From positions 28,321 through 92,320 of the forward strand of contig JAFRAK010000007.1 in assembly GCA_017405445.1 (NCBI GenBank): DNA of 64,000 nt. The letters run 5' to 3'. The notes under the pieces were generated by a model, which saw only the letters and a program-made list of their open reading frames with translations, did not search any database and had not been told where the DNA came from. This DNA is from Bacilli bacterium (GTDB lineage Bacteria; Bacillota_I; Bacilli_A; RF39; UBA660). This document shows, one piece after another, positions 13,581-28,596 of this stretch (within the stretch, counting starts at the first letter, position 1; each line of letters opens with the position of its first letter). A program made the translations under genes and the position numbers.

Positions 13581-13610
13581 AAGAAGACGTCGGCAACGTC
13601 TTCTTTTACT
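13581..13610 (+). terminator. Rho-independent terminator
   Basis: AAGAAGACGtcggcaaCGTCTTCTT followed by T-rich tract. Confidence 0.7.
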
Positions 13611-13890
13611 TTCTATCTAAGAGGCTGTCCCCCTGAGGCCAGCCTCCAAAAAGAATAAAAAGGGGTTGGCTAGTGTGATACTAGCGACCAATTCGCCTAA
13701 TTCCGAATTGGTGATACTTATACTAATCGAAATAGAGCAATTTGTCAATAAAAAATCGAAAAAAAAATCATTTTTTTTCATTGATAAAACAATGATTTAT
13801 GTAATTACTGACAATTTATAAAAAACACTTATAAAAATCAAAAAAAAAGTACATTTTTTTCTTTGAAAGATAAGTAGTTTATGATATAAT

Positions 13891-16285: not shown

Positions 16286-16401
16286 AATTTGAAAATGGAA
16301 TTGACTTTTTCAAATTTATACCTTATGATTAAAGTACGTGATAGTAAATATCACGTGAGTAATATCTCTAACGACTTTATGTTAGAGTATATTCAACCGA
16401 A

Positions 16402-16480
16402 CCCCCTGAAGACACTGTCGAGAGACAGTGTCACTTTTGTTTATAAGGGTTTTCGAAACTTTGAATTTTTTCTAGATACC
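16402..16480. repeat. Repeat R1: CCCCCTGAAG + 9-bp perfect inverted repeat GACACTGTC-gaga-GACAGTGTC + TTTATAAGGGTTTT + ttttctagata tail
   Basis: Seen directly. Near-identical copies at 17030 and 19926. C5 run is conspicuous in this AT-rich DNA. Confidence 0.85.
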
Positions 16481-16554: not shown

Positions 16555-16583
16555 TTGACAAAGATATAAAAGTATGTTATTAT
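16555..16583 (+). promoter_or_regulatory. Sigma-A-type promoter (TTGACA-17 nt-TATTAT) driving a short + strand transcript
   Basis: Consensus -35 at 16555-16560, 17-nt spacer, -10 at 16578-16583. Confidence 0.6.
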
Positions 16584-16610
16584 GTATACAGATGAGGGAA
16601 ACTTCATAAA

Positions 16611-16660
16611 ATAAAAAAAGGGAACATTCAGTTTTCGCAAGTTGAATGTCTACCCTAAAT
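16611..16660 (-). terminator. Minus-strand rho-independent terminator for the small-peptide mRNA
   Basis: On minus strand GGGuaGACAUUCA...UGAAUGUUCCC followed by U7. Confidence 0.6.
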
Positions 16661-16668
16661 TGGGTTTT

Positions 16669-16705
16669 GACACTTAATCAGTGCTGATTAGAGTGTCATT
16701 TTTTT
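16669..16705 (+). terminator. Plus-strand rho-independent terminator (also forms a hairpin in the minus-strand mRNA around its stop codon)
   Basis: GACACTTAATCAGtgCTGATTAGAGTGTC followed by T7. Confidence 0.65.
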
Positions 16706-16788
16706 ATTACTAAAACCAGTAAGGTTAAGAGTAGTAAAATGAGTGATATGTAGCGAAGCAACTTTATGTTGTATTCACGTTTTTTCAT
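16696..16788 (-). CDS. 30-aa hydrophobic peptide MKKREYNIKLLRYISLILLLLTLLVLVIKK, type I toxin-like small membrane protein
   Basis: Hand-translated. GGAGGT RBS 8 nt upstream. Own promoter and terminator. Below the 60-aa ORF-track threshold. Confidence 0.5.
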   Translation of the reverse strand: MKKREYNIKLLRYISLILLLLTLLVLVIKK

Positions 16789-16854
16789 TCTCTCAAACCT
16801 CCTCTCTATGATGGATTGGAGGTAGACACTCAACAACTAAATGTTCCTAAGATT

Positions 16855-16882
16855 AGTATATCAAATATATGTTCTATGTCAA
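16855..16882 (-). promoter_or_regulatory. Minus-strand sigma-A-type promoter (TTGACA-16 nt-TATACT) for the small-peptide gene
   Basis: Reverse complement of 16855-16882 reads TTGACAtagaacatatatttgaTATACT. Confidence 0.55.
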
Positions 16883-17029
16883 TATATGTTTCTAGATACC
16901 AAATCCAGATACTAATTGTAAAAAAACAAGATGTTTTTATAAACCTTAGTAAATTTAAAAAAATGAAAAAGCCTTATTTTATAAGACTTTAACTAATTAT
17001 TAAATTATTATGGGCTGGTTAATTAAATT

Positions 17030-17110
17030 CCCCCTGAAGAGACTGTCGAGAGACAGTGTCACTTTATTTTATAAGGGTTTTAAGAGTTGATAATCATTTT
17101 CTAGACGTAT
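17030..17110. repeat. Repeat R2 (copy of R1, one substitution in left arm of hairpin)
   Basis: CCCCCTGAAGAGACTGTCGAGAGACAGTGTCACTTTATTTTATAAGGGTTTT...ttttctagac. Confidence 0.85.
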
Positions 17111-17146
17111 TTCAAATATTTTGGTTATTTTATAAACTCTTTTTGT

Positions 17147-17155
17147 GTTATAATA
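17147..17155 (+). promoter_or_regulatory. Extended -10 promoter element TGtTATAAT
   Basis: Perfect TGnTATAAT. Would start a transcript near 17162. Confidence 0.45.
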
Positions 17156-17275
17156 AATATACAATTTACATTATCAAGAGCAAGGGAGAGAATTGGCTCA
17201 ATGATCTTGCACCAACCTATTTAGTTAGGTGGCAAAACCAACAAAGCATAGCTTTGAATGATAAATACGAATTAA

Positions 17276-17305
17276 CCTTATACGTTCGTATAAGGTTTTT
17301 CTTTT
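17276..17305 (+). terminator. Intrinsic terminator or attenuator about 30 nt upstream of the cassette's first RBS
   Basis: Perfect 20-nt palindrome CCTTATACGTTCGTATAAGG followed by TTTTTCTTTT. Confidence 0.55.
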
Positions 17306-17336
17306 CTTGATGGTGTCTATTGGGAAAGGAGAAATT

Positions 17337-17621
17337 ATGGAAAACTATATGAGTTACGGAAATGGAACTATAGGTGTTAGAGATGATGAATTATATGAGA
17401 ATTGGAATTCAGATTTTATTAAGTACCTAAAAGAAAGAGGTTTTAGTAACTGGGGACGCAAAGGTTATTTTTGTGGAAATGTATTATATGTTAATCTAAA
17501 TAGTAAAAGATATGCATTTAGTTGGCCTGGGGTTAAATTCACTGAACCTCTAGCATTAAAATATGTTTCAATTGAAGACTTTAAAAAAATATATGAAATA
17601 TTTGAAAAATATGATAAATAG
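17337..17621 (+). CDS. Hypothetical 95-aa protein, first gene of repeat-bounded cassette
   Basis: AAAGGAG RBS 5 nt upstream of ATG 17337. No recognisable motifs. Confidence 0.55.
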   Translation: MENYMSYGNGTIGVRDDELYENWNSDFIKYLKERGFSNWGRKGYFCGNVLYVNLNSKRYAFSWPGVKFTEPLALKYVSIEDFKKIYEIFEKYDK

Positions 17622-17674
17622 TAAATGATTGAAGATATATGTTATAATTTCTTATAAGAAATGGGTGATATTAT

Positions 17675-18451
17675 ATGACTTATTATAGTAACAGGCAAAT
17701 TAATAAGATGGTAAAAGATGCAATAGATAATTATTGCCCTCCTTCAACATATAAAAATAAAATGCCAACTGAGGAAGAATTTGGCATACAAGATATTGAT
17801 ATTGATCAAATAGAAAAAGAAAGAAACATATTTATGAAAAAAAAGGATAAATATGAAACTCTGATGGGTGCTTCGTTTATTTTTGGTTGTTTGCCTGCAT
17901 GGATAGTTTCATCTTTAGTTGGGCTATTATTTGAATTGTCAGACAATGCTTACATGTGGTTGTTTTCCGCTTCTTGGCTATTTTTAATTGTATTCTTCGG
18001 TATAATGAGTAGTAAAAAATATCCAAATGAAAAAACGTATGAAAAAACAAAAAAATATACTCAAGCAATATCTCAATATTATTGGTGGCAGGAAAGAAAG
18101 AAAAAGGATTTTTGGATTAAACTAGATGGAAGAAAGTTTGAAATTGAGGTAGCAAGAATATTTAAAAAATTAGGATATAAGACTAAAATATGCAAACAAG
18201 GTGGAGATGAAGGAGTAGATTTAGAAATAGAAAAAGAAGGAGTTTTAGAGATAGTTCAATGCAAAGCACATAAAGCAAAGGTATCTCCTTCAGTAGCAAG
18301 AGATTTATTAGGTACAATGTTAAATAAAAAAGTTAACCATTCATATTTAGTAACGTTAAATGGTGGTACTACTGGAACTATTGATTTTTGTAAAAAGAAC
18401 AACATTACTTTATGGGATATAGATGACATTATTAGATATGACAAAATGTAA
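17675..18451 (+). CDS. Membrane-anchored (2 TM) protein with C-terminal Mrr-like restriction-endonuclease catalytic domain
   Basis: FEIEVARIFKKLGYKTKICKQGGDEGVDLEIE...EIVQCKAHKAKV matches the Mrr_cat pattern (GxDxGxD...QCK). Two hydrophobic helices at residues about 65-115. Confidence 0.7.
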   Translation: MTYYSNRQINKMVKDAIDNYCPPSTYKNKMPTEEEFGIQDIDIDQIEKERNIFMKKKDKYETLMGASFIFGCLPAWIVSSLVGLLFELSDNAYMWLFSASWLFLIVFFGIMSSKKYPNEKTYEKTKKYTQAISQYYWWQERKKKDFWIKLDGRKFEIEVARIFKKLGYKTKICKQGGDEGVDLEIEKEGVLEIVQCKAHKAKVSPSVARDLLGTMLNKKVNHSYLVTLNGGTTGTIDFCKKNNITLWDIDDIIRYDKM

Positions 18452-18484
18452 TCTATATTAATTATTTGTATGGAGGTGATAGCA

Positions 18485-19792
18485 ATGAGAAAATATGAGT
18501 TACAATTTGATGATGAAAGTATTAAAGATACTATCCACTCTAATACTTTAAATAGAAATGATAAACTATTTAATTTAATAAGATTATTAAATAGTATGAA
18601 TGAAAATCATATTATTTCTATTGATGGTGGTTGGGGAAGTGGAAAAACTTTTTTTATAAAGCAACTTATATATTTAAAAAACAATCATAATGATTGTAAT
18701 TTTCTAAAGCAAGATGTTCATGATATTATTACTGAATTTAATGAAAAATATATAGTAGTTTATTATAACGCTTGGGAAAATGATGATCATAATGATCCGA
18801 TAGAATCAATTATTTATAATATATTAAATATTTTACCAAAGTACTCAGATACATTTATTGATACATCAGAGTTATTTGATTTAATAAAGAAATCCTGGAT
18901 GAATTTTATTGAAGTTTCATCACTAGGAATTGTTAAAACTGAAGATGTCAAAGAAATGAAAACTTTTTCTGATTTGGCAGATTCTGTTAATACAATAGAG
19001 GAAAAGAAAAATGCAGTTTTGACTTTGTTAAGTCATATTACTAAGTATAAAAGAATTCTTTTAATAATTGATGAGTTGGATAGATGTAAACCAGATTTTG
19101 CTGTTAAATCAATTGAAACCATAAAACATTTTTATGATAGTCCTAAAATAAGTACAATTTTTGTTACAAATAATAATCAGTTATCTAAGACAATAAAAAA
19201 ATTTTATGGTAATGAATTCGATGGATATAGTTATTTGAATAAAATATACGATGCAGTTATACCTTTACATTGTGATAATATTGAGCAATACTCTAAAAAG
19301 TATTTAGATATTAATCATAGTACTAATCTTCCTGAAGATGTTTCTATTTTTCTATTTAAACATTATAACCTTTCATATCGTGAATGTAATAAATATATGT
19401 CTATGTATAGGTTAATTGAGCCTTATATCCATTGGAAAGATAAATTTTCTGAAAATAATAGTAATATTGATATTTCATGTATATTTGTTCCTATAGCTAT
19501 TGCTTTAAAGGTAAAAGATATATACTTATATGAAAGATTTATACAAAATGATGCTTCAGATATCTTAAAGGAACTTTTTGATGATGATAAATTAAATAGC
19601 ACCAATGGTAATTTATATAGATGGTTTTGTGAAATCTTCAAAGTTAAAGAAGGAATGGAATTATCTAATAGAGTTGCTAATAGATATAAGGAAATATTTA
19701 GTGTAGATAATGTTTATGATTATAATAAATATCCTTATATGGAAGCTATATCTATGCTAGGTAATCTTATTCATATTGAAGATGATAAATAA
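18485..19792 (+). CDS. KAP-family P-loop NTPase
   Basis: Walker A ISIDGGWGSGKTFF. Walker B plus KAP signature LLIIDELDRCKPDFAVK. GGAGGTGA RBS. Confidence 0.8.
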   Translation: MRKYELQFDDESIKDTIHSNTLNRNDKLFNLIRLLNSMNENHIISIDGGWGSGKTFFIKQLIYLKNNHNDCNFLKQDVHDIITEFNEKYIVVYYNAWENDDHNDPIESIIYNILNILPKYSDTFIDTSELFDLIKKSWMNFIEVSSLGIVKTEDVKEMKTFSDLADSVNTIEEKKNAVLTLLSHITKYKRILLIIDELDRCKPDFAVKSIETIKHFYDSPKISTIFVTNNNQLSKTIKKFYGNEFDGYSYLNKIYDAVIPLHCDNIEQYSKKYLDINHSTNLPEDVSIFLFKHYNLSYRECNKYMSMYRLIEPYIHWKDKFSENNSNIDISCIFVPIAIALKVKDIYLYERFIQNDASDILKELFDDDKLNSTNGNLYRWFCEIFKVKEGMELSNRVANRYKEIFSVDNVYDYNKYPYMEAISMLGNLIHIEDDK

Positions 19793-19925
19793 TAATTTTT
19801 AGGTTCTATTTAGGTTCTATAAATAGTAAAAAATCTTAAAAAATAGTAAAAAATTATAATACAGAGGGTTAACGATTATATTGATTTAACAGGTTTTAAT
19901 AAGCAAAAGGTCTATTAAATCGCGA

Positions 19926-20000
19926 CCCCCTGAAGACACTGTCGAGAGACAGTGTCACTTTATTTTATAATAGTTTGTGAAACTTTATATTTTTTCAAAT
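19926..20000. repeat. Repeat R3 (copy of R1)
   Basis: CCCCCTGAAGACACTGTCGAGAGACAGTGTCACTTTATTTTATAA...gaaactttatattttttc. Confidence 0.85.
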
Positions 20001-20357
20001 ACTAATTAAAAAAATTCACATTTTATATGTGAAGTTTTTTATTATACTATTTTTTCTTTTTATTGTTAATTGTTACATATGCTATACTACCTAATAAAAG
20101 TGATATAGCAACAATCATTACACATATTAGTTTTAAATTATCTGTATTTTCATTTGACTCTTCAATCGTATCAAAACTCATATTCTTATATGATATTAAT
20201 GGATTATATTCTTCATCATTATTACTAGATCCTAATAATAGTCCATTATCTTCTTCATTACTATTTTTATAACATAATAAAAAACATTTTTATGATTATT
20301 GTCTTTGACATTTTAGATTGTTGTAAATATAATAGAAATTTATAGGGAGGATTTATT

Positions 20358-20678
20358 ATGTTAGGAGAAAACATAGTAGCAGCGGTTATCGATGTAGATT
20401 GTTATCAAAATACAGAAGAAGAAATAAAATACGGTGGACCTAAATACTTAGGTTTTGAGTTTTGGGTTAGAAAAAAAGAAAAAGAATTTATGACAGAGTA
20501 TGTTAGATGCATGTTACATGAATATAATGTACCGATTATCAATATAAGAAATACAAAATCAAAAATAGTGAATGAAACAGAACTACATACTTTAGATCAA
20601 ATAAGAGAAGTAATAGAAAATAACAAAGATCACATGTTTGAAGATTACAAGTATTATAGTAAAAAAAGATGCAAATAA
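20358..20678 (+). CDS. Hypothetical 106-aa cytoplasmic protein
   Basis: GGGAGG RBS. Followed by terminator. Confidence 0.55.
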   Translation: MLGENIVAAVIDVDCYQNTEEEIKYGGPKYLGFEFWVRKKEKEFMTEYVRCMLHEYNVPIINIRNTKSKIVNETELHTLDQIREVIENNKDHMFEDYKYYSKKRCK

Positions 20679-20687
20679 TGACTAATA

Positions 20688-20714
20688 AAAACAGATAAAA
20701 ATCTGTTTTTATTA
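20688..20714 (+). terminator. Rho-independent terminator
   Basis: AAAACAGATaaaaATCTGTTTT followed by T-rich. Confidence 0.65.
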
Positions 20715-20826
20715 TGGAATAGTTTAGTTATAAAGAAGTTTTATTGTAAATAATAGTAAACTTATAAAAATTAATTTACTATCAATTATTATTATGAGAT
20801 AATGACAATAGGAGGGTTGTGAAAAA

Positions 20827-23800
20827 ATGGTCGAAGACAATGGATTGATAGAGAATTCTAAAAATAAAGGATTCAAACAAAAGAAAATAAAAGAATTTTT
20901 AGATGAATATGCCGATAGTAATCTAAAATTTACAGATGAAAGAATAAAGTTATGTTCATCAGATGATTTTAATGAATTAGCTGATGTTTTTAAAAGTTTA
21001 CAAAAACAAAAACATGCTCCTATTATGATTAGTCAAGTAGGAGGTTTTTACGTTATGGCTTCTTTGGCAGGCCATGCAGCAGATAATAGTAGAACCAAAC
21101 CAGTTTTACTTTTTTTTGATAAAAAAACGAATAATATTGCCAATGCTATTTACAATACTTTGTTAATGCAAGCATGTGATACAAAAGAAAGATATATCGC
21201 AACTTTATTTGGATTAGATGATAAAGATATTATTATAAGTTTAGATGAAAATAAATATATTGATTATATTGTACAAGTATTTAAAGAAAAAGAAGATACT
21301 ACAAAAATTGATAAGAAAAGAATTACTATAAAAGCATTACGAAAATATAAAGAAAATAAAGAAGAATATGATGAAATCATTGCGAAAGAACATGATTTGG
21401 CTCATAGAGCTATGAGAGAATTAGAAGAAAACTTTAATATTGCGAATATAGAAAAATATGCTGAATCAAAAAAATATGATAAAGAAAAACATCTTAATAT
21501 CATCAATAAAGCAATTGAAGGAAAACTAAGTAAAGAACATAAAGCATTATTTGAACCAATTGCCAAATCTATGACAGATTATTTAGCTAAAGGAGAAAAC
21601 TATTACGACTTAGTCAATTATTTATCTAGAGATATTCAAAAGAATCAAGAAAATCATATTTTATGTAATGATGATATTTATGAAGGATATAAATCATTAA
21701 TTAGTAAAAAAGGACAATCATCCGTAAAATTTGTACCAGGAGTAGATATTTCTACAGAAGCCGGTATTAATAAATTAGAAAAAATACTAACAAATGAAGG
21801 CTTCATTAATAAAAATGATAAACCTAATAATTTCCCAATAGACATTGCTTTTTTACCACATATAGAGACATTCCAAGGAGCTTATCCTTTTATCAAGAAA
21901 AATGTAGAAAAATATATCAGAGTTAACCGTGAAAATGCTAATAATTTTTCAATGCATCCAACTGCTTCATTACATGTAAGAACATATGATAGTATAGGAG
22001 CTAATTTTATAGAAGAAGAAAGAAAAAGTAGAAAGCCATTAACGCATCTAACTCCAATTGAAAAACAAGAAAAAGGATTCCCATTACTTACATTTATCGC
22101 AGGTGCCAATATTGGTAATATTTATAATAGTGAAGTAGATTTACAAAATGTTATTGATATGGCAATTGCAGATAAAGTAGATACAGTTTATATTCAAGGA
22201 TTAATCTATTCTACATACTATCATAATCAAACCAATAGGAGATTACTAGTAGATCCTAAATATGAGACATTAGATCAAAGATTAAAAGCAGCAAAGAAAC
22301 TTGTAAAAAAATTAAATGATAATGGAATTAAAGTAGTCTATCAAATGGGTGATGAAGAATATCACTTATATGAAGATATGTTTAAGATTTATACAAGAGA
22401 ACAAGGTGTAAAAGGAAATGATTTCTTAAGAAGAGATGATTTAAAATCAGCTCATGATTGGGTTAGACCAATTATTATTCAAGAATTGATTCCATATTTA
22501 ATTCGTAGTGGAGAAGATTTAACCAATTTCTATACAGATGAAGAAAGAGAAACAAGAGTTACAGAACTATGTAATGCTTTAAAGAATTATAAAGAAGGAC
22601 TACCTTTAGGAGAACTAGCAAAATATATTAAACCCGAATTTCTAAAAGATACAGATATGTTTAGAGTTGTTTATTCTACAATAGATAGATATGATAAAGA
22701 CCCAGCATTATCTGTAAACATTTTAAGTAATCCAAATTTTTCCACAAATGCACAATATTCCAATCCAACAGGAGGAATAATTAAAAACTTAAAAATCTAT
22801 CAAACAGGGGCACTTGGAAGTGGAAAACTTGCCCAAACTCCACAATTATTTGTAGATGGAAGACAAGGTATGATGTCCATTTCTTATCGTGGTGATCAAG
22901 TAACGATGAATGTACCACAAATGATAGATGATGCCAAATATATAGAACATCCTGAATTATTGTCGGGAATTAAAGAACATATAACTTCTGATCCAACTCA
23001 TGCTAGAGTAACAAAAGGAAGTACTAGACCAAATTATCCAGGTTCTTGGACTATTACTGGAGATGCTCGTGAGAAAATGACAATAGTTCCATATTGGAAA
23101 AGAGCAAGAGAAGTAATGGATTATGTTAATAAAACAGGAAAAGGATTAGAAGAAATTGATGTATTCTATTTAAATGATATACAAGCAGGATCATTAACAG
23201 AAAGATTAGAATATACGTTAAAAGCATTAGATCATTTTTACTATGATTATCCTGCACCTAAAGGAATCTGGGGAAATGGAGATTTTCAACAAGGATGGAA
23301 TTATTCTTCATTTGCTAATGAATCTAGACATTTAGGAACAATGAGTGTAGCAGGGCAAATGGAAGACTTTATTAAACTAATTCGTCCATGGATGAGAGAA
23401 TCATTTGGAGTAATTGATCCAACAGTATTTGTAGGAAAATACCCAGATTATAAAATTGATAAAGAAACAGCCGCAAAGATTATGACTCATCTAAGTAGTG
23501 TAAATGTGATTGATTCTAATAAAGGAATTAATCATAATACAGATTTAATTAAAGATGGTGTTGATTATAAAAAAGTAGATTTAAAATTACCTCCAGATTT
23601 ACAACCATATGAAGATACAATTCGTGAAAAATTATCTAATATTAAATTATTAAAATTTATCCATCTAGCAGAAGGAAATCATGAATATAATTCTGATTGG
23701 GATAAAAAAGGATTTAATTTAATTAAACTATTACGTCAAGAATTAAATGGTATGAAGGATTATTCTGGAGCTGATACAGAAATAGCTTTAAGTGAATTTA

Positions 23801-24348
23801 TTATAAATAAAAGAGGAGATATCCTACAGGCACCTCATGGTAGTAAAACTGTAAATGGATATAATGTAGCATATAGTCATTTGTATAGAGCTGCAACAGG
23901 AGAAACTCCTACGAAAGGAATGTCTAAACATTTTGATCGGATGGGAGATTTATCAAATGAGGTTCATAGAGCTTTCATGGGACATTTACATGTATTTGAA
24001 ACATCTGTTATTGATAATAAACTATTTAGTATTACTGGTAGTGGAGCAGGACAAAGTGGTTTTGAACAAAACCTAGGCCTTGCTAGTAGACCATTATTTG
24101 TAATTGATAGATATTTACCAGATGGTAGAGTTGCTGTAGATACTATTGGTACTGAATTTTTAAAGAATTATAAAATTCAAAATCCAGTTGTAAAAGCAAT
24201 GGGACTTGAAAATTTCATTGATGCCTGTCTAACAGAAGAAGTAGGAGTATATGGATTTAATGGTACTCCAAAAGATATTCAACCAGTTCATCAAAGAAAA
24301 TTAGTGATTGCTGAACCAAATAAAATAGTAGGACCTAAAATAGACTAG
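20827..24348 (+). CDS. Large (1173 aa) cytoplasmic hypothetical protein. Weak C-terminal metallophosphoesterase-like motifs (GNHE ... GHLHVFE)
   Basis: Single uninterrupted ORF. No signal peptide or TM. GGAGGG RBS. Motif assignment is tentative. Confidence 0.6.
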   Translation: MVEDNGLIENSKNKGFKQKKIKEFLDEYADSNLKFTDERIKLCSSDDFNELADVFKSLQKQKHAPIMISQVGGFYVMASLAGHAADNSRTKPVLLFFDKKTNNIANAIYNTLLMQACDTKERYIATLFGLDDKDIIISLDENKYIDYIVQVFKEKEDTTKIDKKRITIKALRKYKENKEEYDEIIAKEHDLAHRAMRELEENFNIANIEKYAESKKYDKEKHLNIINKAIEGKLSKEHKALFEPIAKSMTDYLAKGENYYDLVNYLSRDIQKNQENHILCNDDIYEGYKSLISKKGQSSVKFVPGVDISTEAGINKLEKILTNEGFINKNDKPNNFPIDIAFLPHIETFQGAYPFIKKNVEKYIRVNRENANNFSMHPTASLHVRTYDSIGANFIEEERKSRKPLTHLTPIEKQEKGFPLLTFIAGANIGNIYNSEVDLQNVIDMAIADKVDTVYIQGLIYSTYYHNQTNRRLLVDPKYETLDQRLKAAKKLVKKLNDNGIKVVYQMGDEEYHLYEDMFKIYTREQGVKGNDFLRRDDLKSAHDWVRPIIIQELIPYLIRSGEDLTNFYTDEERETRVTELCNALKNYKEGLPLGELAKYIKPEFLKDTDMFRVVYSTIDRYDKDPALSVNILSNPNFSTNAQYSNPTGGIIKNLKIYQTGALGSGKLAQTPQLFVDGRQGMMSISYRGDQVTMNVPQMIDDAKYIEHPELLSGIKEHITSDPTHARVTKGSTRPNYPGSWTITGDAREKMTIVPYWKRAREVMDYVNKTGKGLEEIDVFYLNDIQAGSLTERLEYTLKALDHFYYDYPAPKGIWGNGDFQQGWNYSSFANESRHLGTMSVAGQMEDFIKLIRPWMRESFGVIDPTVFVGKYPDYKIDKETAAKIMTHLSSVNVIDSNKGINHNTDLIKDGVDYKKVDLKLPPDLQPYEDTIREKLSNIKLLKFIHLAEGNHEYNSDWDKKGFNLIKLLRQELNGMKDYSGADTEIALSEFIINKRGDILQAPHGSKTVNGYNVAYSHLYRAATGETPTKGMSKHFDRMGDLSNEVHRAFMGHLHVFETSVIDNKLFSITGSGAGQSGFEQNLGLASRPLFVIDRYLPDGRVAVDTIGTEFLKNYKIQNPVVKAMGLENFIDACLTEEVGVYGFNGTPKDIQPVHQRKLVIAEPNKIVGPKID

Positions 24349-24368
24349 AAAACTAGTCTTTTTTTATT
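24341..24368 (+). terminator. Rho-independent terminator overlapping stop codon
   Basis: AGACTAGaaaaCTAGTCT followed by T9. Confidence 0.7.
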
Positions 24369-24470
24369 AAAATAATCTATGATATAATAAAAATGATAAG
24401 GAGATATACTAAGGATTAAAAAAAGAAAAAGTAGAAATAAAAATAATAGAGAAAAAATAGAGAGGTTTAT

Positions 24471-25253
24471 ATGAAAAAAAGTTTAATAATAATAGGAATT
24501 ATATTATTAATAGGAATAGGAGTGATTATGATGGTATTATTAAAACCAAAAAAAGAAATAAATTCTATTAAATCATTAGAGTATAGAGAATCAGATGGAA
24601 GAAGTATGTATGGTGCGTTAGAATATACTTATCATTGTGGAAAAGATTGTACTCTAACCACAAAACCACAAGGAGTAAAGGATGAAGATGCTTTAAAAGT
24701 AGAAGTGACAGAGGAAGAACAAGAAGAATTATTAGAATTAGTAAAAAAATATAAAGTTGCTTCATGGGATGGGTTTAAAGGATCAGATAAATATGTATTA
24801 GATGGATCTAGTTTTACACTTTCAATAAAAACAAAAGATGATGTTACCATTGATGCTAGTGGATATATGAAATATCCAAGAAACTTTCATAATTTTATGA
24901 AGGAATTAGAAGAATTATTCGCAAGAATTAATCGAAAAAAACTATTTATCATATTTGATCATGAAAAATATAAAGACTTTAAAATTGAAAATGTATCAAA
25001 ACTAGTAATTACAAAAGAAACAGAAGGTGGATTAGATACAGAAGAAATTATAGAAAAAGAAGAAATTGAAAAGAAATATGATTATTGGAAACATATAGTA
25101 ATAGGACCAAAATGCTCTATGGCTTGTGAAGACAATACAACAATCTATAAATTTATCATGAATGATGGAAAAGAATATACAATTGAAAAGGAATGTGATT
25201 GGGTAATTATTGATAAAGATAGATATTATTATCAATATAGAAAGGATGTATAA
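24471..25253 (+). CDS. Membrane-anchored hypothetical protein (N-terminal TM, Cys-containing ectodomain)
   Basis: ORF with N-terminal hydrophobic helix IIIGIILLIGIGVIMMVLL. Confidence 0.55.
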   Translation: MKKSLIIIGIILLIGIGVIMMVLLKPKKEINSIKSLEYRESDGRSMYGALEYTYHCGKDCTLTTKPQGVKDEDALKVEVTEEEQEELLELVKKYKVASWDGFKGSDKYVLDGSSFTLSIKTKDDVTIDASGYMKYPRNFHNFMKELEELFARINRKKLFIIFDHEKYKDFKIENVSKLVITKETEGGLDTEEIIEKEEIEKKYDYWKHIVIGPKCSMACEDNTTIYKFIMNDGKEYTIEKECDWVIIDKDRYYYQYRKDV

Positions 25254-25254
25254 A

Positions 25255-25473
25255 ATGAATGGTTTTTCATGTTTAATGATAATATTTGGAGTTTTAATCT
25301 TTCTCGCCGGATTATACATTTATACAGGACATAAAAACCCAGTTCTATTATGGAAAGTATATAATCTAGATACGATTAGTAAAAAAGAACTTCAAAATAT
25401 CGGAAAATGGACAATGATTTCCAGTATTATTCCATTTCTACTATCCATATTAGGATTCTTTATAGAAGTTTAA
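25255..25473 (+). CDS. Small 2-TM membrane protein (72 aa)
   Basis: Starts 2 nt after previous stop. Two hydrophobic helices. Confidence 0.45.
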   Translation: MNGFSCLMIIFGVLIFLAGLYIYTGHKNPVLLWKVYNLDTISKKELQNIGKWTMISSIIPFLLSILGFFIEV

Positions 25474-25597
25474 AAATTATTATAAGACTAAATAAAACTT
25501 TTATATTATTACATTTAAAAGTTATATTTACCTTTTTAATAATATTGACTAATCATAATAGCTATTTTATAATCATATTAAAGATAGGAGAAGTATT

Positions 25598-26277
25598 ATG
25601 AATAATAACGAAATTAATGAGAGTGAACAAAATCAAAATATCATGACAGAAGGGAATCAAACACCACAAGTCCCTTTAACAAATTCAAATAATGAAAAAG
25701 GAAAAAATAATAATGTTATTCCAATTGTTCTATTAGTTTTAATAGTTGCAGTAGGGGCATTTATAGTATTTATGAATAAAGATAAATGGTTCAATACAAA
25801 AACAATAAAGAATTTAAATACAGAAGAAAAATCAAATAAAGAAAAAGAAAAACAAACAATTAACAGCGATGAAACCAAAGAAGAAAAAACAGAACGTCAA
25901 CCGAAACTTCTACAAATCAAGAAACGAAAACATCAACCGAAACTTCTGCAAATCAAGAAACACAAACACCTACTGAACCTTCTACACCTCAAGAATCACA
26001 ACCTGCTTCTGACCCTGAACCAACACCTACAGTGAATGAAATTGAAGAAATACCAGGAACAACCTTATATCTATATTCAGATGGTTCTATAGGAATGGAT
26101 GGAATGAATTTTGAATATGTAAGTTCAAATTCAGGTGTATTGAATGTTAATATAACAATTAATGGTAGTACAAAAAACTATAATCTTCCAATTGGACAAG
26201 AAACAAAAATTGATAATTTAAAAAATCCCATTCTAGTGGAAGCGGAAGATGACTATTTTTTAATTAATTTTAGATAA
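25598..26277 (+). pseudogene. Frameshifted gene for an N-terminally anchored secreted protein with Thr/Glu/Pro-rich linker. A +1 shift at the A6 run 25884-25889 splits it into track ORFs 25598..26035 and 26032..26277
   Basis: Adding one A to the A6 run fuses both ORFs into one about 226-aa protein: ...EEKNRTSTETSTNQETKTSTETSANQETQTPTEPSTPQESQPASDPEPTPTVNEIEEIPG... Confidence 0.55.
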
Positions 26278-26390
26278 TATTGAAAAAATAAAAGAATTGT
26301 CAATAAATGACAATTTTTTTTGTATAAATATAATTATAAAGAAAAAGTATTATAGAATATGTTATAATAATAACTTTGAGGAGGAATAAT

Positions 26391-26903
26391 ATGTCAAAAT
26401 CATTACCTTACATAAATAATCTAGAAATATATAATGGAGCATTTATTACACCCTCTAATGCTATTATTTTAGTAAAAGATAAACATGATATTACAGCAAA
26501 AAAGTATTGTGAAGGAGAAAACGAGCAATCATCTCAATTAAGTATAAAAGAACAAGAACTATATGAATATTGGAAAAATTATAATAAATGGAGAAAAAAT
26601 AATAGAGAAACAGATTTTTTAATCACTGTCTTAGGATTTGATAAAATAGAAAATATTGTAAAGCATAGTATTATGACCTCTTCACTAGAACCCCATATTC
26701 GTTTTTATAATTATTTGTTAATGGATTGGACCATTAATTTACAAACTAGAGTTATATATAATCCAGACAAGAAAACATTTGAAAGACAATCTCTTAGTAG
26801 TTGGCATATAGGTAGTTTAGAAGAACAAGAAGCAAGAGAAGAAATCGAAGATATAAAAAAACGTGTAAAAAAAATAGATAGACCATTATTCTTTAAAAGC
26901 TAA
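26391..26903 (+). CDS. Hypothetical protein (about 170 aa)
   Basis: GAGGAGG RBS 6 nt upstream of ATG 26391. Confidence 0.55.
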   Translation: MSKSLPYINNLEIYNGAFITPSNAIILVKDKHDITAKKYCEGENEQSSQLSIKEQELYEYWKNYNKWRKNNRETDFLITVLGFDKIENIVKHSIMTSSLEPHIRFYNYLLMDWTINLQTRVIYNPDKKTFERQSLSSWHIGSLEEQEAREEIEDIKKRVKKIDRPLFFKS

Positions 26904-26963
26904 AATCTTTACAAAATAGAACTTTTATGATATAATACATAACCATTAAAGAGAGGGGTACGT

Positions 26964-27533
26964 ATGGAGAAAAAATTAAATTTATATTTAAATATAATAG
27001 AATCAGTTCTTATCTTTATATTAGTAGGAATGGGAACGATTCTTTATGTAAATCAAATAAGATTTGGAATGTTAGAGAAAAATCTAATTATTACAGGAAG
27101 TTTTATTTTAGAATTTTTATTAATTTCCATTGAATTATTTATTTTCTATAACTTAAAAAATAAATATAAATGGACTACGATGGTATTCTATTTATTAGAT
27201 TTTGTCTTATTATTTGTTATAGCAGCAAAAATACCATTCTATGGAATTATGATATTATTAATATTGAATATAACAAAGAACATTTTAAGAGTATTAAAAT
27301 TAGAAGAAATAAAAGATTTAAATCAATACTATAAAATATGTGAAACATTTAATATAAAAGTAAAAAAATCTACAAAGAAAAGAACAACTACATCTAAAGT
27401 TAGTGCTCCAAAGACTAAAAAAGAACCAACAAAAGTTCCAAAAACAACTACGAAAAAAGCACCTGATAAGAAAGCAACTTCAACAAAACCTAAAACAACA
27501 ACTTCTAAAAAAACAAGAAAAAGTTATGCTTAA
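26964..27533 (+). CDS. 4-TM membrane protein with Lys/Thr-rich (histone H1-like) C-terminal tail
   Basis: Hydrophobic helices then KKSTKKRTTTSKVSAPKTKKEPTKVPKTTTKKAPDKKATSTKPKTTTSKKTRK. Confidence 0.55.
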   Translation: MEKKLNLYLNIIESVLIFILVGMGTILYVNQIRFGMLEKNLIITGSFILEFLLISIELFIFYNLKNKYKWTTMVFYLLDFVLLFVIAAKIPFYGIMILLILNITKNILRVLKLEEIKDLNQYYKICETFNIKVKKSTKKRTTTSKVSAPKTKKEPTKVPKTTTKKAPDKKATSTKPKTTTSKKTRKSYA

Positions 27534-27596
27534 AACTACTATTCATAGTAGTTTTTTTATTTATTATGTTATAATAAAAAAGAATTAGGAGGATTT

Positions 27597-27962
27597 ATGA
27601 AGATATATAAATGTAAAAAATGTGGAAATTTAGTTTTAACTTTAAATGATAAAAATAGTATTACTTGTTGTGGAGAAGAAATGAAGGAGTTAGTCGCAAA
27701 TACAGAAGATGCTGCTTCAGAAAAGCATGTACCAGTAGTTTCTATTAATAATAATGAAGTAACTGTTAAATGTGGAGAAATGCCTCATCCAATGGAAGAA
27801 AAGCATTATATAGAATTTATTTGTATAGAAACAACAAAAGGAATTCAAATTCACTATTTAAAGCCAAATAATCAACCAGAAACATCTTTTACTCTAATAG
27901 AAGGAGAAGAACTATTAAGCGCTTATGCTTATTGTAATTTACATGGATTATGGAAGAAATAG
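27597..27962 (+). CDS. dfx: Desulfoferrodoxin (superoxide reductase)
   Basis: N-terminal desulforedoxin CKKCGN...CCGE plus neelaredoxin-type EKHVPV...H..E..C.LHGLW centre. Confidence 0.85.
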   Translation: MKIYKCKKCGNLVLTLNDKNSITCCGEEMKELVANTEDAASEKHVPVVSINNNEVTVKCGEMPHPMEEKHYIEFICIETTKGIQIHYLKPNNQPETSFTLIEGEELLSAYAYCNLHGLWKK

Positions 27963-28585
27963 TACTATTTGATTTAGATGGAACTTTATGGGATACTTCT
28001 ATTTGTACTTATGAATTTGTAAAAGACTATTTAAAAAATAATAATTATCCCTATGAAGTATCTTTAGAAGTAGTAAAGAATAATATGGGGAATAATCTAA
28101 GTGGTTGTGCAGAAGGATATTTTCCACAAGTAGAAAAGAAGAAAAGAGAAGAATTATTATTAAAAATATTTCAATATGAAGTAGATCGATTAAATGAATA
28201 TCAAAAATCTGATATTATTTATGACAATGTTTATGAAGTATTAAAAGATTTATCAAAAAAATACAAACTAGGAATTGTGAGTAATTGTTCTACAGAAGAA
28301 TACATTGAAAACTTTTTAAGAATATCTAAAACAAAAGAATTTGTTACTGATTATATCCCTGCATCAAAATATAATCTTACAAAAGGTCAAGCCATGAAAG
28401 AGTTAATGAAAAGAACTCATTGTATGAAAGGAATTTATATAGGAGATACAAAAAAAGATCAAGATGAGTCAAATAAGGCCAATATCCCTTTTGTTTATGC
28501 AGAATATGGTTTTGGAAAAATAGAAAATAAGTATAAAATAAAGTCAATCAAAGAATTACCTGCTTTATTAGAAAGAATAATTTAG
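27950..28585 (+). CDS. HAD-superfamily hydrolase
   Basis: Motif I LFDLDGTLWDT. Motif IV GDTKKD. Confidence 0.75.
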   Translation: MEEIVLFDLDGTLWDTSICTYEFVKDYLKNNNYPYEVSLEVVKNNMGNNLSGCAEGYFPQVEKKKREELLLKIFQYEVDRLNEYQKSDIIYDNVYEVLKDLSKKYKLGIVSNCSTEEYIENFLRISKTKEFVTDYIPASKYNLTKGQAMKELMKRTHCMKGIYIGDTKKDQDESNKANIPFVYAEYGFGKIENKYKIKSIKELPALLERII

Positions 28586-28596
28586 GATGAAGAAAT

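Follow-up and report, generated by a model that had tools for sequence, protein, structure and literature searches.

The type IV restriction enzyme Mrr recognizes modified DNA and carries an N-terminal winged-helix DNA-binding domain (Mrr_N), and in Zorya type I the protein ZorD, a SWI2/SNF2 helicase fused to Mrr, has ZorABC as its partners. In another family, the KAP P-loop NTPases, inserted transmembrane (TM) helices are reportedly typical of many members (Aravind and colleagues, 2004). Helices inserted in the NTPase domain are typical of many KAPs and yet not universal, and KAP NTPase proteins of an architecture other than the one described below have been found by experiment to be antiphage (PMC13552941). 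EF_KAP and the KAPs from gut metagenomes each combine TM helices and a long, fused C-terminal part in one polypeptide (PLoS Biol 2026, PMC13552941), and the validated single-protein KAPs carry a TM region as well as a large C-terminal region, the latter being required for defense (PMC13552941). PDC-S20 is a single-gene KAP NTPase candidate obtained by “guilt-by-embedding” (Payne et al. 2024, bioRxiv 10.1101/2024.01.29.577857), and the PDC systems of PADLOC are candidates not yet tried for antiphage activity.

The locus described here carries a Mrr-type nuclease gene next to a KAP NTPase gene and lies in the window, the 64,000-nucleotide stretch of DNA that was analysed. The first-pass annotation took both, with a smaller gene before them, for a three-gene defense module in one cassette between two repeats. 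The reading preferred here, with a probability of roughly 0.6, is that the locus is a composite of a SAM-I riboswitch unit, a mobile cassette and repeats (R1 to R3) derived from a small RNA, and that the cassette would serve in defense against phages or mobile genetic elements (MGEs). Its anatomy is plain from the following features.

16333..16446, plus strand: predicted, uncatalogued small RNA gene of ~110 nt (conservation, covariation)
16401..16472, plus strand: R1, a 72-nt repeat copy made of the small RNA 3' end and its downstream flank
17029..17100, plus strand: R2, repeat copy with 79% identity to R1 over 72 nt
17146..17154, plus strand: extended -10 promoter TGTTATAAT of the riboswitch-small ORF unit (read from the sequence)
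17168..17267, plus strand: SAM-I riboswitch aptamer (S-box; RF00162 match)
17274..17307, plus strand: intrinsic terminator, the riboswitch expression platform (hairpin 17274-17297, 10-bp stem, T-run)
17337..17621, plus strand: called ORF, riboswitch-controlled gene for a soluble 94-aa protein, outside the Mrr-KAP cassette
17637..19935, plus strand: mobile two-gene cassette of promoter, Mrr, KAP and a 3' UTR that carries arm-type repeats, its 3' end formed by the CCCCCTGAAG core of R3 (nucleotide homology)
17640..17648, plus strand: extended -10 promoter TGTTATAAT of the cassette (read from the sequence)
17675..18451, plus strand: called ORF, membrane-anchored Mrr-type PD-(D/E)xK nuclease of 258 aa (Pfam, PADLOC, alignment, hydrophobicity)
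18485..19792, plus strand: called ORF, soluble KAP-family P-loop NTPase of the PADLOC PDC-S20 type, 435 aa (Pfam, PADLOC, structure model)
19799..19854, plus strand: tandem short repeats, TTAGGTTCTAT twice and AATAGTAAAAAAT twice, putative arm-type sites of an integrase
19925..19996, plus strand: R3, repeat copy with 89% identity to R1, proposed attR

The native unit would consist of the SAM-I riboswitch, a transcription-terminating OFF switch, and the 94-aa protein; the 2.3-kb mobile cassette would have been inserted 16 nt past the stop codon of the 94-aa ORF; and the R repeats would be duplicated 3' ends of the ~110-nt small RNA gene, itself the likely attachment site of an island. Every sequence feature that the first-pass annotation listed is present, including the R2 and R3 copies on either side of the three genes (R1 being a further copy), both extended -10 promoters and the three ORFs, the first of which encodes 94 and not 95 residues. 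The leader terminator is there too, but its nature as a SAM-I expression platform had been missed. The view of R2 to R3 as one cassette has to be given up for the composite, with the R copies as duplicated small RNA 3' ends. Nor are the three genes one system: a riboswitch-headed small gene is followed by a separate Mrr-KAP mobile cassette. None of the small-ORF loci has Mrr or KAP, and none of the Mrr or KAP loci has the small ORF or the riboswitch. A three-gene module is thus not supported, since the trio is not co-conserved, an outcome that the annotation itself had named as speaking against its proposal.

The riboswitch aptamer matches the RF00162 covariance model over its full length (model positions 1-108) with 64.6 bits against a gathering score of 44.4, and the start of the 94-aa ORF is backed by an alignment of homologues. 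A SAM-I riboswitch is found 5' of the small ORF not only in the window but also in each of the 11 related loci whose upstream sequence is long enough (L001, L002, L004-L010, L023 and L024), and the extended -10 TGTTATAAT of the unit is kept in L023, L010 and L001. The riboswitch-small ORF unit is a member of the SAM regulon in a clade of Bacilli from gut and rumen that are uncultured. As in the S-box (SAM-I) regulon of Firmicutes, a canonical aptamer is followed by a terminator, and in relatives the regulated gene precedes a MetK-like gene; unlike in that regulon, the 94-aa protein under riboswitch control falls outside all described families and defense-type cargo shares the transcription unit. 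In more divergent relatives the small ORF heads an operon with the MetK-like gene, whose product is compact (260 aa), and the genes 3' of the small ORF vary, being a mini-MetK, PHO4, a type II restriction-modification (R-M) pair, an oxidoreductase, or none in the same orientation. For example, L001 and L002 have the order riboswitch, small ORF, extended -10, a 50-aa ORF, type II REase and C5 methylase, with the first terminator only after the methylase, and L024 has a type I R-M system 1.8 kb 3' of the riboswitch and small ORF. In the syntenic MAG L023 the order is recG, small RNA, riboswitch, small ORF and terminator, with neither Mrr nor KAP.

The cassette is mobile and independent of the small ORF. 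Homology to its other copies begins at 17637/8 and stops at 19932-19937, with 96% identity to L014/L015 and 86% to L017/L018, and the left contexts differ among the window, L014/L015 and L017/L018. It recurs in two other contexts that lack both the riboswitch and the small ORF, one of them an integrase-bearing island, and its extended -10 is kept at the left edge in L014, L015, L017 and L018. The Mrr and KAP genes are tightly linked, being separated by 33 nt, and have one promoter and one terminator in common, and the pair is also found in loci L014-L020. At the protein level, the copies in L014/L015 and L017/L018 are 97% and 69% identical to the window for Mrr and 94% and 91% for KAP. A module resembling type I toxin-antitoxin systems adjoins the cassette.

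The small RNA gene has a promoter (TTGACT-17-TATGAT at 16301-16329), two hairpins, a single-stranded AUUCAACCGAACCCCCUGAAG and a terminator hairpin, and R1 is its 3' end. L014, L023 and L026 have kept the gene, promoter and terminator included, with compensatory changes in 9 of its 17 predicted pairs. Its covariance model, run on the first 99 of the 112 loci, matches only these three and, in part, R2 and R3; an Rfam search at E values up to 1 placed it in no family, and ARAGORN found no tRNA or tmRNA within the window. A 36-nt core of the repeat occurs at 16402, 17030 (with 1 mismatch) and 19926, where 0 such occurrences are expected by chance, and it extends to 72 nt. The right flank of R2 runs into the riboswitch promoter, as it does in L023. 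In L015, L017 and L018 the cassette stops at the same core and is followed by a different, host-specific hairpin.

The complete form of the island is seen in L014, in the order small RNA gene, integrase and, further on, DEDDh exonuclease, Mrr, KAP and att; it has the integrase, the small RNA as attL and, at either end, arm-type repeats, but on the right the contig breaks off within the core of the junction. The TTAGGTTCTAT pair, which is found in one place only within the window, stands at both ends of this integrase-bearing element (993-1015 and 8610-8631). These comparisons identify the cassette as the apparent right-end cargo of an integrative island, with the small RNA gene 3' of recG as its likely attachment site; in L026, too, the small RNA lies 3' of recG and is followed by an island with KAP and type I R-M. 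The arrangement resembles islands in the 3' ends of tRNA and tmRNA genes, where (as in L014) a tyrosine integrase lies beside the target gene with arm-type repeats at both ends, and where the junctions carry direct repeats of the target gene 3' end. It differs in its target, a ~110-nt small RNA absent from the catalogues, and in that the copy in the window is without its integrase half, only the right half of the island being present. The order that has to be derived is R1, insert, R2, riboswitch-ORF, Mrr-KAP and R3, and simple integration, tandem integration, and excision with re-integration each fail to fit every flank. One point against the composite is that the right end of the island lies downstream, and not upstream, of the riboswitch unit, which simple site-specific integration does not explain.

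The domain identities of the two cassette proteins are firm and agree with those first proposed. The 258-aa protein matches Mrr_cat (PF04471) at residues 149-254 with an E value of 7e-20 and 71.7 bits (cut-off 21), and it consists of a conserved 60-residue N-terminal segment, two TM helices (hydrophobic residues 63-88 and 92-114) and the C-terminal Mrr_cat domain. The motif GGDEGVD...QCKAHK is unchanged in 22 of 22 members of the family, and D178, D182, Q195 and K197 are invariant in these sequences (n = 22). By its layout, the N-terminal segment would be cytoplasmic and the catalytic domain would be held on the cytoplasmic side of the membrane, with DNA as its probable target. The PADLOC model PDC-S02 matches at 1e-10, in the nuclease domain only. 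The protein shares the C-terminal PD-(D/E)xK Mrr_cat domain with its invariant D...D...QxK with type IV Mrr, ZorD and PDC-S02, but has the conserved 60-residue segment and a 2-TM hairpin in place of the Mrr N-terminal DNA-binding domain or a helicase. It is not a type IV Mrr proper, having no Pfam match to Mrr_N, and it is not Zorya type I, matching only the nuclease end of ZorD (profile positions 910-1055) with no helicase and no ZorABC. A phage or prophage origin was also rejected, a scan of viral contigs with the Mrr family alignment having returned no relative. A lookup of the exact Mrr sequence from the window likewise gave no record.

The 435-aa protein matches KAP_NTPase (PF07693) at residues 35-268 with an E value of 1e-33 and 117.3 bits (cut-off 20), and its Walker A (GGWGSGKT, K54) and Walker B (IIDELDRC, D196 and E197) motifs are invariant among 50 KAP relatives. 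No convincing TM segment was found in it, nor any hydrophobic one between the Walker motifs, and its insert at residues 129-170 is polar and modeled with low confidence. The PDC-S20 model PDLC04959 matches nearly end to end (4.3e-43, 146.5 bits, profile positions 15-378 of 464, residues 21-377), and three more PDC-S20 models match at 1e-28 to 1e-37. The two proteins thus both match candidate-defense models in the PADLOC check that had been suggested, PDC-S02 and PDC-S20. Qat was rejected (NCBIfam QatA 27.7 bits against a cut-off of 600, PADLOC QatA 1.5e-6 and local only, no QatBCD-like neighbors), as was PifA (PADLOC 4e-9, local only). The structure model holds an ATPase core and a helical C-terminus only, and neither Pfam nor the model reveals a recognizable effector domain. 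Its best structural matches are RdrA, BrxC and ORC/Cdc6, those to RdrA and BrxC having Foldseek E values of 3e-5 to 6e-4 with low TM-scores (0.36-0.44); searches of PDB sequences with the KAP and Mrr profiles gave no matches.

The relatives of both proteins are found in R-M and defense islands, in line with the enrichment that the first-pass annotation gave as established. KAP relatives lie inside R-M operons of type I and of other kinds, as guilt-by-embedding would predict for PDC-S20, or are paired with HEPN_Apea or NERD proteins, and very often they stand in tight operons (4-nt overlaps or gaps below 35 nt) beside nuclease or methylase genes. Mrr relatives adjoin AbiU/AIPR and DpnII R-M genes. 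The Mrr-KAP cassette is accordingly regarded as a candidate for defense against phages or MGEs, and a coupled system of ATPase switch and membrane nuclease is plausible. In such a system the KAP NTPase, with no effector domain of its own, would be an NTP-dependent sensor or switch that would form an oligomer, as do the RdrA and BrxC ATPases of similar fold, and would license Mrr to cut DNA at the cytoplasmic membrane face. That the nuclease might be an effector of abortive infection, as the first-pass annotation proposed, is a conjecture. Judged by the structure model, this would resemble RADAR and BREX in combining an ATPase with a separately encoded effector, although no match is seen at the level of sequence and the partner is a nuclease and not a deaminase or a BREX protein. 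EF_KAP and the gut-metagenome KAPs share with the window the KAP NTPase domain with its Walker motifs and, as an idea, an NTPase that regulates a linked antiphage module (PMC13552941). Unlike these, the window KAP is soluble and carries no additional domain, and a separate protein bears both the TM segments and the nuclease.

The pairing of Mrr and KAP is evolutionarily shallow. It is confined to close copies of a single cassette (KAP identity of 91% or more), relatives of KAP at 63% identity have different partners, relatives of Mrr at 56-57% identity have an AbiU/AIPR partner or none, and the window-type Mrr stands beside KAP relatives in 0 of 80 metagenomic KAP loci, so that co-conservation has little depth; neighborhoods are known for 4 of the ~22 Mrr family members. 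The locus also departs from PDC-S20 in that the KAP gene shares its operon with the gene of a membrane-bound Mrr nuclease. Literature searches returned no papers for “PDC-S20” and no description of KAP with Mrr. The epithet “undescribed” holds only in part, the KAP family being already catalogued as a PADLOC candidate and KAP NTPase proteins of another architecture being antiphage (PMC13552941).

A serious rival to the coupled system, if still a doubtful one, is that the cassette holds two independent single-gene candidate defense systems, a PDC-S02-like Mrr and a PDC-S20 KAP, which travel side by side as cargo with no interaction. Both PADLOC models describe single-gene candidates, the KAP family is ~100-fold larger (1918 clusters against ~22 for the 2TM-Mrr), and the many other neighbors of KAP, like the Mrr relatives that stand alone or with AbiU/AIPR, point the same way. 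Single-protein KAP NTPases, moreover, can defend on their own (PMC13552941); however, those that have been validated carry the TM region and the defense-required C-terminal region (PMC13552941), whereas the KAP in the window has no recognizable effector domain. The shared promoter and terminator of the two genes, and the frequency with which KAP relatives form tight operons with nuclease or methylase genes, also argue for the coupled system.

Phage SAM lyases lower SAM and disarm methylation-dependent defenses. No terminator is predicted on the plus strand from 17308 to 19935, and the R3 hairpin (19935-19956) with its T-run is the only one predicted 3' of the riboswitch terminator, so SAM-responsive read-through into Mrr-KAP is possible, if unproven. 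With the cassette placed after the riboswitch-controlled ORF but ahead of the first terminator, a drop in SAM, for instance through a phage SAM lyase, would relieve leader termination and boost Mrr-KAP transcription, and the riboswitch would act as a sensor of infection or of metabolic state. This gating of defense by SAM is unlikely. In its favor, a hairpin and T-run are read in the cargo-free L023 ~130 nt past the small ORF stop, the type II R-M genes of L001/L002 precede any terminator as an independent case, and type I R-M lies nearby in L024. Against it, the cassette has its own promoter and recurs as a unit with no riboswitch, each cargo arrangement is known from one lineage, read-through is deduced solely from the absence of a predicted terminator, and the site may be a mere permissive landing spot. 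Quite unlikely, too, is a bolder form in which the SAM-I riboswitch would be a metabolic alarm for defense cassettes that lodge there repeatedly (Mrr-KAP here, the type II R-M pair in L001/L002, each between the riboswitch-controlled ORF and a terminator). In this form, a “split” KAP would license the membrane-tethered nuclease, the soluble KAP and the 2-TM Mrr being a two-protein version of the classical membrane-inserted KAP NTPase. A literature search for SAM riboswitches with defense systems gave nothing relevant. The presence of a SAM riboswitch and defense cargo in one transcription unit in two independent lineages makes a wiring of immunity to SAM directly testable.

That the pair has no part in defense and serves the mobile element instead, either in addiction and stabilization or in membrane-associated DNA processing during transfer, is improbable. 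As such a role would have it, the pair forms the terminal cargo of an island that bears an integrase, with a DEDDh exonuclease and the toxin-antitoxin-like module as neighbors, but relatives of both proteins are far commoner in chromosomal R-M and defense islands than in transfer modules. Last, a three-gene system with the small protein as an accessory subunit of Mrr-KAP is highly improbable: the genes are adjacent and co-oriented with no terminator between them, but the small ORF is beside Mrr or KAP in no other locus and heads a MetK-like operon in relatives, while the cassette recurs without it and homology among the cassette copies starts 3' of its stop codon.

If Mrr and KAP are a unit, a membrane-tethered Mrr nuclease joins the effectors driven by KAP ATPases, and the pair would offer a simple two-protein model for defense by KAP NTPases, the mechanism of which is not yet known. 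The side findings may prove more useful than the Mrr-KAP module. The conserved 94-aa riboswitch-controlled protein and the neighboring 260-aa MetK-like protein are both without a described function, and the uncatalogued small RNA 3' of recG would be both an island attachment site and a defense hotspot in uncultured gut and rumen Bacilli.

The first-pass annotation had proposed a three-gene defense module, and the three co-oriented genes are indeed present:

17337-17621, + strand: small ORF, 94 aa
17675-18451, + strand: Mrr ORF, 258 aa
18485-19792, + strand: KAP ORF, 435 aa

The first protein had been given as 95 aa; its ORF is there, but the length is 94 aa. Residues 149-254 of the Mrr protein match the Pfam family Mrr_cat (PF04471, 7e-20) and the 435-aa protein matches KAP_NTPase (PF07693, 1e-33), which bears out the domains assigned to both, and the two extended -10 promoters and the leader terminator are found where they had been placed. 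The Mrr protein also has two hydrophobic segments (residues 63-88 and 92-114), and since lysine-rich stretches border each of them, both termini, and hence the nuclease domain, should be cytoplasmic. No convincing TM segment was found in KAP. Among the candidate-defense models of PADLOC, KAP corresponds over almost its full length to PDC-S20 (4e-43); for the Mrr domain the model hit is PDC-S02. Qat, PifA, Zorya, and canonical Mrr were rejected as identities of Mrr or KAP since the defining features of each are missing.

The grouping of the three genes into one module did not survive comparison with related database loci (handles beginning with L). The leader at 17168-17267 is a SAM-I riboswitch (full-length hit to Rfam RF00162 at 64.6 bits; gathering score 44.4), with the leader terminator, 17274-17297, as expression platform. 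A SAM riboswitch lies directly 5' of the small ORF in all 11 of the related loci, besides the window, that were scanned and had enough upstream sequence (L001, L002, L004-L010, L023, and L024), and the genes 3' of it vary from locus to locus; the small ORF thus goes with the riboswitch and not with Mrr-KAP. Its family comprises 23 clusters at 63-84% identity, none of them annotated.

Downstream of the small ORF in related loci
L001/L002: type II REase and C5 methylase
L003: another gene without assigned function (following an identical small protein)
L005-L009: compact 260-aa MetK-like protein, translationally coupled
L010-L013: PHO4/PhoU
L023: hairpin-plus-T-run terminator (read from sequence), then HTH/AAA_28 gene
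L024: oxidoreductase, then type I R-M system
GCA_016648615.1: convergent gene

The gut MAG L023 ("Bacilli bacterium") and the window are syntenic over recG, a small RNA, the riboswitch, and the small ORF (77-88% nucleotide identity), and both Mrr and KAP are absent from L023. Other genes stand there in place of 17637-28590, so this part of the window is a variable region. The 260-aa MetK-like protein found under a SAM riboswitch (L007, 4877-5659; also L005, L006, L008, and L009) has an N-terminal SHPDKLADRI motif but falls well short of the metK cut-off (46.8 against 309 bits); it is perhaps a reduced or divergent form of SAM synthetase. An additional ORF of 46-74 aa separates the riboswitch terminator from the small ORF in some lineages (L001, 7840-7998; L004, 250-408), and L024 has an ORF in the same position (7753-7977).

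The Mrr-KAP block is a discrete mobile cassette. At the nucleotide level it is 96% identical to L014/L015 and 86% to L017/L018, and in these cassette relatives the Mrr proteins are 97% and 69%, and the KAP proteins 94% and 91%, identical to those of the window. The shared sequence starts at 17637/8, 16 nt past the small-ORF stop and at the TGTTATAAT promoter, and stops at 19932-19937, inside the CCCCCTGAAG core of the hairpin repeat R3. To the left of the cassette lies the small ORF in the window, whereas L014 has a gene for a DEDDh exonuclease there and L017 has different sequence; no riboswitch was found in L014, L015, L017, or L018.

The hairpin repeat reported around the genes occurs in three + strand copies (R1 at 16402, R2 at 17030, and R3 at 19926; none expected by chance) and extends to 72 nt. 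R1 forms the 3' end of a unit that runs from a promoter through two hairpins and an unpaired stretch, AUUCAACCGAACCCCCUGAAG, to a terminator. This small RNA gene is kept in L014, L023, and L026, with compensatory changes at 9 of 17 predicted pairs; it belongs to no Rfam family and is neither a tRNA nor a tmRNA. The gene is about 110 nt long (window 16301-16446, + strand; L014 838-947; L023 7643-7748; L026 3365-3471) and lies 3' of recG; it has a promoter and a terminator of its own, hairpins supported by covariation, and an unpaired C-rich motif, ACCCCCUGAAG. Mobile or defense genes follow it in three of four distinct loci. A conserved intergenic element 5' of recG (window 13600-13740; L023 4255-4385; 83% identity between the genomes; no Rfam match) carries the same C-rich motif, as CCCCCUGAG/AAG, in a hairpin loop.

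From their sequences, R1-R3 are read as putative attachment-site copies of the small RNA gene. In L014, a tyrosine integrase directly follows the RNA gene, Mrr-KAP comes about 7.8 kb farther on, and the contig stops inside the same core, with tandem TTAGGTTCTAT repeats just within both ends of the element. The cassette also ends at the core in L015, L017, and L018, and the hairpin that follows is of differing, host-specific sequence, as expected with a crossover inside the core. In L026, the RNA gene, again 3' of recG, is followed by an island that carries a type I R-M system and a KAP of 63% identity. The window has arm-type repeats beside R3 only and no integrase, so it would hold only the right half of an L014-type island. 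R1 and R2 bracket a separate 0.6-kb insert, and a simple integration history does not give the observed order, in which the riboswitch unit is 5' of the cassette.

Between R1 and R2 lies a type I toxin-antitoxin-like insert (16555-16900). Its minus strand encodes a hydrophobic peptide of 30 aa (MKKREYNIKLLRYISLILLLLTLLVLVIKK, 16786-16696) with a promoter (16882-16855), a ribosome-binding site (GGAGG), and its own terminator. On the + strand there is a convergent promoter (16555-16583), and a hairpin followed by a T-run was read by eye at roughly 16670-16705; the transcript would be antisense to the toxin 3' UTR. Just past R3, a 44-aa peptide ORF of the same style (20047-20181, minus strand) has a C-terminal TM helix and a KKKK tail. 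Farther on, a 1173-aa protein (20827-24348, + strand) has no match in Pfam, PADLOC, PHROGs, or NCBIfam, and the four ORFs after it, to about 27533, have none in Pfam or PHROGs.

The Mrr-KAP cassette is plausibly a new form of candidate defense built on a KAP. The PDC families are candidates found inside BREX, DISARM, and type I R-M loci, and phage-blocking activity has been demonstrated for KAP NTPase proteins of another architecture (PMC13552941). Among 80 metagenomic loci with KAP, neighbors of the gene include DUF4391 with N6_N4 methylase (10-12 loci), HsdM and HsdS (8), DUF4268, HEPN_Apea, and NERD/Zn-ribbon proteins, and 4-nt overlaps are frequent. One Mrr relative adjoins AbiU/AIPR in a DpnII R-M island (L021), and another lies in an MGE-like region (L022). 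The commonest context in the 80 loci is DUF4391, a KAP about 30% identical to that of the window, and an N6_N4 DNA methylase, joined by 4-nt overlaps (L066, L069, L073, L074, L081, L087, L103, L112, and others). In L034 (3251-6720), KAP and HEPN_Apea come after a NERD plus Zn-ribbon protein, and in L021 (6121-9559) such a protein stands before a 2-TM Mrr and AbiU/AIPR, which suggests repeated shuffling of a small nuclease/NTPase module set.

The leading reading of the pair is an ATPase switch coupled to a membrane nuclease. Mrr and KAP have a common promoter, a common terminator, and a gap of 33 nt, which speaks against their being two independent single-gene candidates, as does the KAP model, an ATPase core with a helical C-terminus that lacks an effector domain and resembles ring ATPases acting with separate partners (RdrA, BrxC, and ORC/Cdc6). 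In canonical KAPs, TM helices are typically inserted between Walker A and Walker B, whereas the insert at this position in the window's KAP (129-170) is polar, of low confidence, and free of TM segments; the partner Mrr protein would supply a 2-TM anchor in their place. Independence is favored, however, by the restriction of the pairing to one cassette lineage (this Mrr stands beside KAP in 0 of the 80 metagenomic loci), by the change of partners once identity drops to 63% for KAP and to 56-57% for Mrr, and by the far larger size of the KAP family (1918 hits against about 22 for Mrr). On this balance, the coupled reading is only modestly ahead.

Terminator-like sites on the + strand between 16200 and 20900 are limited to R1, the riboswitch terminator, and R3, and with none between the small ORF and Mrr-KAP, transcripts that pass leader termination should run from one into the other. 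In the cargo-free L023, a hairpin plus T-run about 130 nt past the small-ORF stop is read as a terminator. L001/L002 parallel the layout of the window independently, with a type II R-M pair as cargo: an extended -10, TGTGATATAAT, comes directly after the small ORF, and there is no terminator before the methylase end. In L001 (8001-10901) and L002, the REase, a 396-aa protein (Pfam MTaX1; PADLOC type II REase, 1.7e-52), directly follows the riboswitch-controlled small ORF with no terminator between, and a C5 DNA methylase comes next. The cassette has a promoter of its own and occurs elsewhere without a riboswitch, which speaks for an incidental position of the riboswitch relative to the cassette; SAM-responsive expression of the defense cargo would be allowed by the arrangement of the sequence.

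The components are of known kinds, namely a SAM-I riboswitch, an Mrr_cat nuclease, a PDC-S20-type KAP NTPase, and an integrative island at an RNA gene. What is new is an Mrr protein built with two TM helices and paired with a soluble KAP, a small RNA as the apparent attachment site, and the placement of defense cargo inside an S-box transcription unit.
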